The notes under the pieces were generated by a model. That model had not been told where the DNA came from. It worked only from the letters and a program-made list of their open reading frames with translations, and made no database searches. 64,000 bases of DNA from Chrysomallon squamiferum (lineage: Eukaryota; Animalia; Mollusca). Positions within the stretch are counted from its first letter, which is position 1, and every line of letters starts with the position of its first letter. The DNA lies in assembly GCA_012295275.1 (NCBI GenBank), contig CM022678.1, forward strand, positions 5,580,001 through 5,644,000. Direction: 5' to 3'. Below are positions 46,506-48,257 of the stretch, piece by piece. A program made the translations under genes and the position numbers.

Positions 46506-46574
46506 TTCGCTGACCTGAGAGTAGGGGGGAGAAGTGTGTCAACTGTGCTGCCATTTCCACTGTGGCGTAGAGAC
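46506..46574 (+). other. Intronic inverted copy of part of the GATA N-finger exon (exon-complementary sequence)
   Basis: The plus strand ttcgctgacctg...agtgtgtcaactgtgctgccatttccactgtggcgtagagac matches the sense sequence of exon segment 48243-48175, in exact blocks of 12, 15, 8 and 14 nt. Confidence 0.9.
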
Positions 46575-47204
46575 CGGAAGTGACGTCGTGTGTTGATGAC
46601 AGGTGGCACCACACACACAACAGACAGCGAGCAGCAGTGAATATTGGAACAAAATAAAAATCATACGAGTTATCGGACTTCGGCATCGAGAAACTGGCAT
46701 TGTTCTCTCCCTTGTTTGCTATTTCCCTATTTATTTATTTATTTATTTATTTTATTTTATTTTATTTTATTTATTTTTTAAATTAATTTATTTTATTTTA
46801 TTTATATACGTACAGTTCCCAACAGTATTTAAAATATCGTACAGGTATTAAGTTTTCAAACTATTAGTCGTATGCAATTCTAAATTCTTTTGATCCATAT
46901 TATCTTAAAAGCAAGAACACATGGATCAAAAGAGTCCAGAACAAAACACTAGGTCTTTAGAAAACAATATAAACACTTAAAACTTAATTCATTTTTACTT
47001 ATTTACTTACTTACTTACTGAATTACTGAATTACTTACGTATTTACTTACTTTACATACTTACTTACTTATTTATTTACTTATTTATTTATTTACTTATT
47101 TATTTATTTATTTATTTAAAATAATTTTCCAGATAAGGAAAGATCAAATTAGAAAATCAGACATCAATTTCTCTTCAGTGAATAGACTCGTATCGTATAA
47201 CGAT

Positions 47205-47292
47205 CCGATTACGGCCGAAATCAACCGAAATCAACCGATATTAACCGATATCAGCCGACATCAGCAGACATCGACCGATATAATCCGAAACG
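47205..47292. repeat. 10-bp degenerate tandem repeat (ccgaaatcaa-like)
   Basis: ccgaaatcaa ccgaaatcaa ccgatattaa ccgatatcag ccgacatcag cagacatcga ccgatataat. Confidence 0.8.
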
Positions 47293-48084
47293 TCTCTCTG
47301 ACCCGTCTAAAGATTTTTGAACAATGCCAGTTCCTTGAATGCGAGATAAAATTACTTAAAGACTGTATTGTGTTGAATAACTGACTGAGTTTCCTATGTA
47401 GACTTGGCTAATTAGTAACATGTGTTAGACCTTGGATATTTATTAGAAACATAATCCAAATATAACTAGTGGAGTGAATGAAATTACGAGGGCAGGAGAT
47501 AAACATTTTATAAGGCGGTGGCTGTGATGACGTGACTTGGATCGTGTGAATATAAGGTGGCGGGGACTGCGGGAGGGGTGGGCGTGGCGCTAGGTTGGGT
47601 GAGTTACTGGTAGGGTAATGGTTTAAGTGATGAAATGAAATAATTTAAATAATTCAATTATTAATAAAATTACGTTTTGAAATTTGAATCTTTGTAAATA
47701 TAGGTGTTTGTTTTTTTGTTGTTGTTTTTTTTATCGGATAGAGAGAAAAAGACAAAAAAAATAAATAATAAAACCTAAGAGAAACAGAGACAGATAGACT
47801 GACAGACAGACAGACAGACAGAGAGTCAGAGATTATACAGATAGACGGAAAGACAGAAAGATCTCTAAACAGACTATAACGTTTGCAGTATAATTAAGAC
47901 ACCTGAATCGAAGGAAACTCAGTCAATATATATATATTCTAAATTCTACTCATCTTTAAGAATTTTTTTAATTCTTTTCTTTATTCCTAATTTAATTCTT
48001 CTACACAAAAACTGTTCCTAAATGATGTGACATATCTGCTAACTTAGTAAAAATAAATAAATAAAAAATTAAAAAATTACTTAC

Positions 48085-48257
48085 CAGCCGTCGCTGGGGT
48101 TTGATCAGGGGTCGGTTTATTCCGTTCATTTTATGGTAGAGTCCACAGGCATTACATAGGTAATGACCCGTGCCGTCTCTACGCCACAAAGGCGTGGAAA
48201 TAGCACCACAGTTGACACACTCTCTCCCCTCCAGGTCAGCGAAATAGTCTTGCCCAT
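48085..48257 (-). CDS. GATA4/5/6: GATA4/5/6 exon encoding the N-terminal zinc finger
   Basis: Acceptor ttttTCAG|AT and donor CTG|GTAAGT. Translates [58 protein letters not shown] (CX2CX17CX2C; YHKMNG and PQRRL are typical of the 4/5/6 class). 173 nt, phase 1 to 0. Confidence 0.97.

Follow-up and report, generated by a model that had tools for sequence, protein, structure and literature searches.

An intronic inverted copy of the N-finger exon as a very likely RNA editing guide in a GATA4/5/6 gene of Chrysomallon squamiferum

The second intron of a GATA4/5/6-class gene of the gastropod Chrysomallon squamiferum holds an inverted copy of part of the exon which encodes the N-finger, and the question arises what such a copy is for: whether it guides editing of the finger, controls splicing of the exon or is a leftover of a local duplication. 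The stretch of DNA that was analysed (further called the window) has a length of 64 kb, is AT-rich and dense in microsatellites, and carries on its minus strand a two-finger GATA gene with coding exons between 60501 and 37512; all coordinates are those of the window, and all features of the gene given below lie on the minus strand. Both GATA fingers show the arrangement Cys-X2-Cys-X17-Cys-X2-Cys with basic tails and GATA456-type flanks, as in the GATA4/5/6 class. Coding exon 1 (59640-60501; N-terminal domain, 287 codons and one base) was recognized by protein identity, its nearest named protein being the GATA-4-like protein of Gigantopelta aegis (P0058, 72% identity), with 55% identity to Haliotis (P0059) and about 43-56% to most bivalve matches. 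The N-finger exon (PF00320) follows, then the C-finger exon (41568-41693), the basic-tail exon (40727-40829) and the last coding exon through the stop codon (37512-37831). An exon of 173 nt (starting at 48257 and ending at 48085) had been assigned to the N-finger by the first-pass annotation, and it is kept here as one form; the acceptor found in the spliced contigs of two RNA runs, X2 and X3, lies 18 nt further upstream and gives an exon of 191 nt (48275-48085) with the additional residues GEFPFS. The form GEFPF[S/A]DG is also present in the proteins of G. aegis and Haliotis. The sequence of this tandem alternative acceptor (48258-48275) resembles the donor of exon 1.

In a self-blastn search of the window, positions 46506-46574 aligned with the reverse complement of 48243-48175 at 81% identity over 74 columns (E 4.8e-11). 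The four exact blocks described earlier are all in place, and the element starts 1510 nt past the donor (48085), in agreement with the previous estimate of about 1.5 kb. Two point differences had been claimed, one of them becoming a U-G wobble in RNA; the wobble was confirmed (48202/46552), while the count has to be corrected to three, with an A.C mismatch at 48225/46528 and a G.G mismatch at 48206/46548. The local alignment score of the copy is 81, as against a mean of 21.5 (sd 2.4, maximum 33) for 300 dinucleotide-shuffled exons aligned to the same intron, and when the other coding pieces that were tried (C-finger exon, exon 1, basic exon, last exon and 3' half of the N-finger exon) were aligned to the gene, scores of 24-38 resulted. 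The inverted copy at 46506-46574 is a real element of the intron. In Rfam searches, seven sub-threshold matches were obtained within 37000-62000 and none at 46300-48300.

Both arms belong to one transcript, where the exonic arm (48175-48243) and the intronic arm (46506-46574), the putative editing-site complementary sequence (ECS), are predicted to form an extended imperfect exon-intron duplex of the type that directs ADAR recoding. Its predicted energy is about -117 kcal/mol, with a helix of about 62 bp interrupted by three bulges. When the minus strand of 46300-48300 was folded, this helix was present in the minimum free energy structure, and the probability of its pairs was about 1.0 at six of the seven sampled positions and 0.63 at the seventh. 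The ECS region folded on its own gave a z of only -2.2.

Comparison of RNA with DNA was possible since the locus is covered by five runs, four of them RNA from a single study and the fifth, X5, of unrecorded type; X1, X2, X3 and X5 were compared and X4 was left out. All run sequences are contigs, and the RNA and the DNA come from different individuals. X5 is read as DNA because its intron coverage is even (depth about 30-40) and its substitutions are of mixed types. In X1, X2 and X3, on the other hand, the match of the exon contigs to the window breaks off precisely at the donor 48085, and a further 835, 835 and 672 letters follow, a continuation that presumably leads into the C-finger exon; in X2 and X3 the contigs are also joined to exon 1 at 48280. 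These contigs are thus spliced RNA and not DNA.

In these contigs both adenosines of an AAC (Asn) codon, 48213 and 48212, read G (T>C on the plus strand) in all three RNA runs, including all three covering contigs of X3, and X5 has neither change. A third exonic adenosine, 48201, reads G in part: the change ATT>GTT (Ile>Val) occurs in X2 and in part of X3, where it has a share of 29.5 out of 58.6 summed contig depth (a contig figure, which is no editing level), and is missing from X1 and X5. On the intronic arm A>G was found at 46544 in X1 and X3, both RNA runs which cover that position, and at 46554 and 46555 in X3, one of the three RNA runs; some of these intronic calls are single contigs with a depth of 3.65-5.3. 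X5 spans both arms at a depth of 29-39 with none of the six changes. The A-to-G differences therefore lie in the duplex and on the transcribed strand, the DNA being that of other individuals, and in the spliced mRNA they are non-synonymous (AAC>GGC and ATT>GTT). The earlier suggestion that the duplex might serve A-to-I editing is supported by these changes in exon and intronic arm, and two of the three codons named as candidates, AAC and the AUU of GCU-AUU, are indeed the ones altered; the candidate ranked highest, CGU-AGA (48180), is unchanged in all three RNA runs. The contigs of X3 form a fork at 48225, an adenosine opposite C in an AGA codon which would turn Arg into Gly if edited. The fork lies where records 12 and 13 overlap, with a third, unlisted difference in record 12, and hints at a fourth editing site in the exon.

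All six sites fall within the central helix between bulges (48220-48194 / 46534-46560). Among positions covered by RNA and X5 an RNA-only A>G is seen at 6 of 29 arm adenosines, and of 323 adenosines elsewhere 2 show one (Fisher p 4.7e-6). Outside the arms there are three more RNA-only differences, none of them T>C. Among the listed differences from the window T>C accounts for 19 of 25 in RNA and 6 of 19 in X5 (p 0.005). A 5' G next to the edited A is disfavoured across metazoans, according to excerpts of PMC9989829; here, none of the ten helix adenosines with a 5' G and six of the 19 with other 5' neighbours are edited, a difference which is not significant (p 0.07). It is highly probable that the RNA/DNA differences represent editing, presumably by ADAR, and the element at 46506-46574 is very likely a working editing guide. 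The changes present on both arms support the existence of the duplex in the cell.

What the editing would do to the protein can be read from the codons. AAC>GGC replaces Asn by Gly, so that CVNC becomes CVGC, and one edit alone would give Asp or Ser. The edited Ile position is variable among N-fingers (I, M, V, T, L). In a set of 313 N-fingers obtained by homolog searches, cluster look-ups and a representative search, which favours sequences similar to the query and comes mostly from genomes, the Asn position is occupied by Asn in 312 and by His in one, never by Gly, Asp or Ser, and the Asn is likewise unchanged in all 37 GATA proteins that were derived from runs of other animals. Alignment with solved GATA1 chains, taken together with how the listed variants are spaced, equates the recoded Asn with N206 of human GATA1. 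In excerpts of PMC9600848, N206I is described as pathogenic and accompanied by severe thrombocytopenia, and FOG1 binding as impaired by the neighbouring V205M and G208R/S; an excerpt of PMC8844375 assigns to the GATA N-finger the binding of FOG/Ush and a stabilising role in DNA binding, the C-finger being the main DNA-binding domain. The snail thus resembles the disease variants N206I, V205M and G208R/S in the position affected, and differs from them in that those are germline changes to other residues, so the effect of Asn>Gly is drawn by analogy. On that footing, a lowered affinity of the edited finger for FOG-type cofactors is likely. By analogy with N206I, V205M and G208R the finger may also be weakened or destabilised, and the protein would then behave more as if it had the C-finger alone, a tentative suggestion rated a little short of an even chance.

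The sequence of events that is proposed begins with the intronic copy, which is complementary to the N-finger exon, and with the duplex predicted in the pre-mRNA. In spliced contigs A>G differences appear in RNA relative to the DNA-like X5; ADAR would edit three exonic and three intronic adenosines of the helix before splicing, and the mRNA would encode a finger reading CVGCGA(V/I) in place of CVNCGAI. The element would be kept by selection, and the resulting N-finger would be weakened or destabilised, with lower binding of FOG-type cofactors. Taken as a whole, this account of editing guided by the duplex before splicing, selected and altering cofactor binding by the N-finger, is considered probable, with considerable reserve. 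For the part of selection the comparison of X5 with the window is relevant: 46300-46719 holds no substitution, where 8 are expected, and other intron sequence has 18 over 944 nt (Poisson 3e-4, rising to 3e-3 when clusters are counted; a single comparison of linked sites in a block chosen after inspection). This substitution-free block, together with the price to be expected when a near-invariant residue is lost, suggests maintenance by selection, and an adaptive function of the editing is plausible.

Around the ECS there are further predicted stems. A 14-nt motif has three copies in the window, all of them around the ECS, as compared with 0.1 expected. The 5' flank of the ECS (46585-46622) is predicted to fold on itself or to pair with either of two downstream arms: a near arm (46452-46503), complementary to it at -36.3 kcal/mol, a value reached by none of 1000 shuffles of regions picked after inspection, and a far arm (46322-46362) at -44.5 kcal/mol. 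If the near arm pairs, the ECS would be left in a loop, a state that probably cannot coexist with the complete exon helix; if the far arm pairs alongside the exon-ECS helix, a pseudoknot would result; and self-folding of the 5' flank is predicted to be favoured once the exon helix forms. The flanking TGCCACCT stems may, according to these predictions, tune access to the ECS, and they could equally be the scar of a duplication.

The possibility that the A>G changes are population alleles or assembly artefacts, and the element inert, has to be faced because RNA and DNA samples are unmatched, alleles can mimic editing, and 19 listed differences separate X5 itself from the window. Such alleles would have to turn two neighbouring adenosines into G in the codon of a near-invariant Asn, and the presence of Asn in 312 of 313 N-fingers makes a double germline change unlikely. 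One more exonic and three intronic A>G changes would be required in addition, all on one strand and all inside the helix, while not one of the 109 non-adenosine arm positions has an RNA-only difference of any other type; this explanation is regarded as highly improbable. Real editing without benefit deserves more weight. The ECS might be a lineage-specific inverted micro-duplication, produced by template switching between the TGCCACCT inverted repeats nearby, and its place amid the three motif copies unique in the window is a setting that could favour such switching. Both arms of the duplex are edited, as in promiscuous editing, and among 81 GATA loci of other animals no homologous ECS was found, the loci being distant, without a close relative and in many cases short (80 metagenome and two MAG loci had been gathered, and 81 were screened for an inverted exon copy, L082 excepted). 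Against incidental editing, the dominant contigs of all three RNA runs lose the residue which nearly every N-finger keeps, a costly loss if useless; the block around the ECS is free of substitutions in X5; and editing is limited to the six of 29 arm adenosines. A useless by-product is thus held to be rather unlikely.

The remaining reading is that the duplex serves mainly in splicing (masking or skipping of the exon, NMD, choice of acceptor) and that editing is its by-product. It has precedents. In Drosophila serpent (srp) the mutually exclusive exons of SrpNC and SrpC are swapped by docking and selector pairs between introns, so that N-finger exons are spliced in or out through long-range RNA pairing (excerpts of PMC4691838 and PMC8844375). 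Forms of bivalve GATA4 (P0007-P0029, P0061) without the N-finger, srpC-like, exist as well, with a substitute exon of 19-21 residues and a separate cassette exon. In the snail, loss of either the 173-nt or the 191-nt exon would shift the frame and lead to an early stop, just as had been foreseen for the 173-nt form. The exon-intron helix overlaps neither splice site, however, and the listed RNA contigs contain the N-finger exon. A helix complementary to the donor (48096-48084 / 46625-46637) was considered and rejected: at -18.3 kcal/mol it is matched in stability by 335 of 1000 shuffles, which is not above chance, although the ensemble gives it a probability of about 0.57; a donor-sequestering helix of the type known from the Drosophila gene paralytic (para) is thus not supported. 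No homolog of the bivalve substitute exons A and B was found in introns 1-2 by tblastn or HMM searches (best E 1.1), which a diverged short exon could escape. A role primarily in splicing is accordingly judged improbable, and guided editing of the N-finger stays the preferred reading.

The Q/R site of GluA2 (GRIA2) is an ADAR recoding site with a downstream intronic ECS, and validated recoding sites with a defined ECS belong mostly to neuronal proteins of vertebrates, insects and cephalopods. Sites 1-3 of para are recoded by ADAR with a downstream intronic ECS as well, assisted by a hairpin or pseudoknot and a DCS (excerpts of PMC4299485). The snail locus shares with GluA2 and para a bulged exon-intron duplex, an ECS in the downstream intron and clustered A>G recoding; its predicted flanking stems also resemble the accessory intronic stems of para, which tune editing according to the same excerpts. 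It differs from both in its target, a zinc finger of a transcription factor instead of a neuronal channel, and in the fact that two adjacent edits jointly make Asn>Gly. In contrast to para, the snail locus is without a significant DCS and is known here from sequence and contigs. With srp it has in common a long-range RNA pairing in a GATA456-class pre-mRNA at the N-finger, the FOG/Ush-binding domain; unlike in srp, the predicted partner of the intron is the exon itself, and recoding would take the place of an exchange of the finger. The mechanism of ECS and ADAR is already known, and the GATA N-finger is a new and unusual target. No report of GATA recoding was found in the literature searched, most subscription papers lying outside that search. 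The word "gata" has no occurrence in seven supplements of PMC9989829, including a recoding table of 5,697 rows and 22 species, and one supplement each of PMC4384741, PMC8382921 and PMC9068888 contains no GATA gene entries, the full cephalopod editome tables being outside this material. It can be said that an apparently dominant GATA4/5/6 transcript of a gastropod loses a residue which hardly varies among animals and whose mutation in human GATA1 is pathogenic. This would, if confirmed, be a compact and testable case of editing which rewires the cofactor surface of a transcription factor, and genome-based protein models of snail GATA4/5/6 would not match the expressed protein.

The probable recoding of coding sequence by A-to-I editing has a parallel in coleoid cephalopods, as described in excerpts of PMC9068888; the snail is a gastropod, and its recoded residues (Asn, Ile) are other than the Thr of a cephalopod-like case met here. 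In a cephalopod-like GATA4 cluster (P0162, P0271-P0277; so labelled after alignment to Octopus and Argonauta) four of eight run-derived sequences have ISAP for ISTP (Thr>Ala), in three splice forms. It is the sole recurrent substitution in about 640 residues of the cluster, and Thr occupies this position in the other 309 of the 313 fingers. As a change of the A>G type within the corresponding exon segment, it is a candidate for an independent recoding site or else an allele, and it may be listed in the full cephalopod editome tables. A broader and rather doubtful idea would be that molluscs repeatedly tune the FOG-binding N-finger of GATA4/5/6 by ADAR (Asn>Gly and Ile>Val in the snail, Thr>Ala in a squid-like cephalopod), with competing TGCCACCT stems in the snail as a switch, possibly temperature-sensitive, which sets the share of the protein with a working N-finger. 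If true, editing would parallel, by other means, the swapping of exons that yields finger-less GATA in flies and bivalves.

The N-finger exon of a GATA1/2/3-type gene in another animal could likewise form an exon-intron duplex, one not homologous to that of the snail: a 26-nt intronic complement (with one G-U) of the GQNRPLIK codons of this exon lies about 530 nt downstream (E about 1e-7). It was seen in three identical loci of one organism (L062:3955-3980, L063:2508-2533 and L080:1293-1318).

Several other features of the snail introns were recorded. The acceptor of the C-finger exon extends a tandem array (41694-42770) that is rich in AT and built of units of about 83 bp, most of which copy the pyrimidine-AG acceptor, making about ten decoy acceptors upstream of that exon. 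GC-richer islands at 44560-45110, 48840-49300, 57830-58170 and 53580-53940 stand out from the AT-rich GATA introns and are possibly conserved regulatory elements, and intron 1 holds a minisatellite with a 23-bp period (54813-55168). Elsewhere in the window, dispersed repeats with 90% identity (4094-4411 with 12418-12735, and 6750-7450 with 12580-13120; one pair inverted) probably represent a transposon family.
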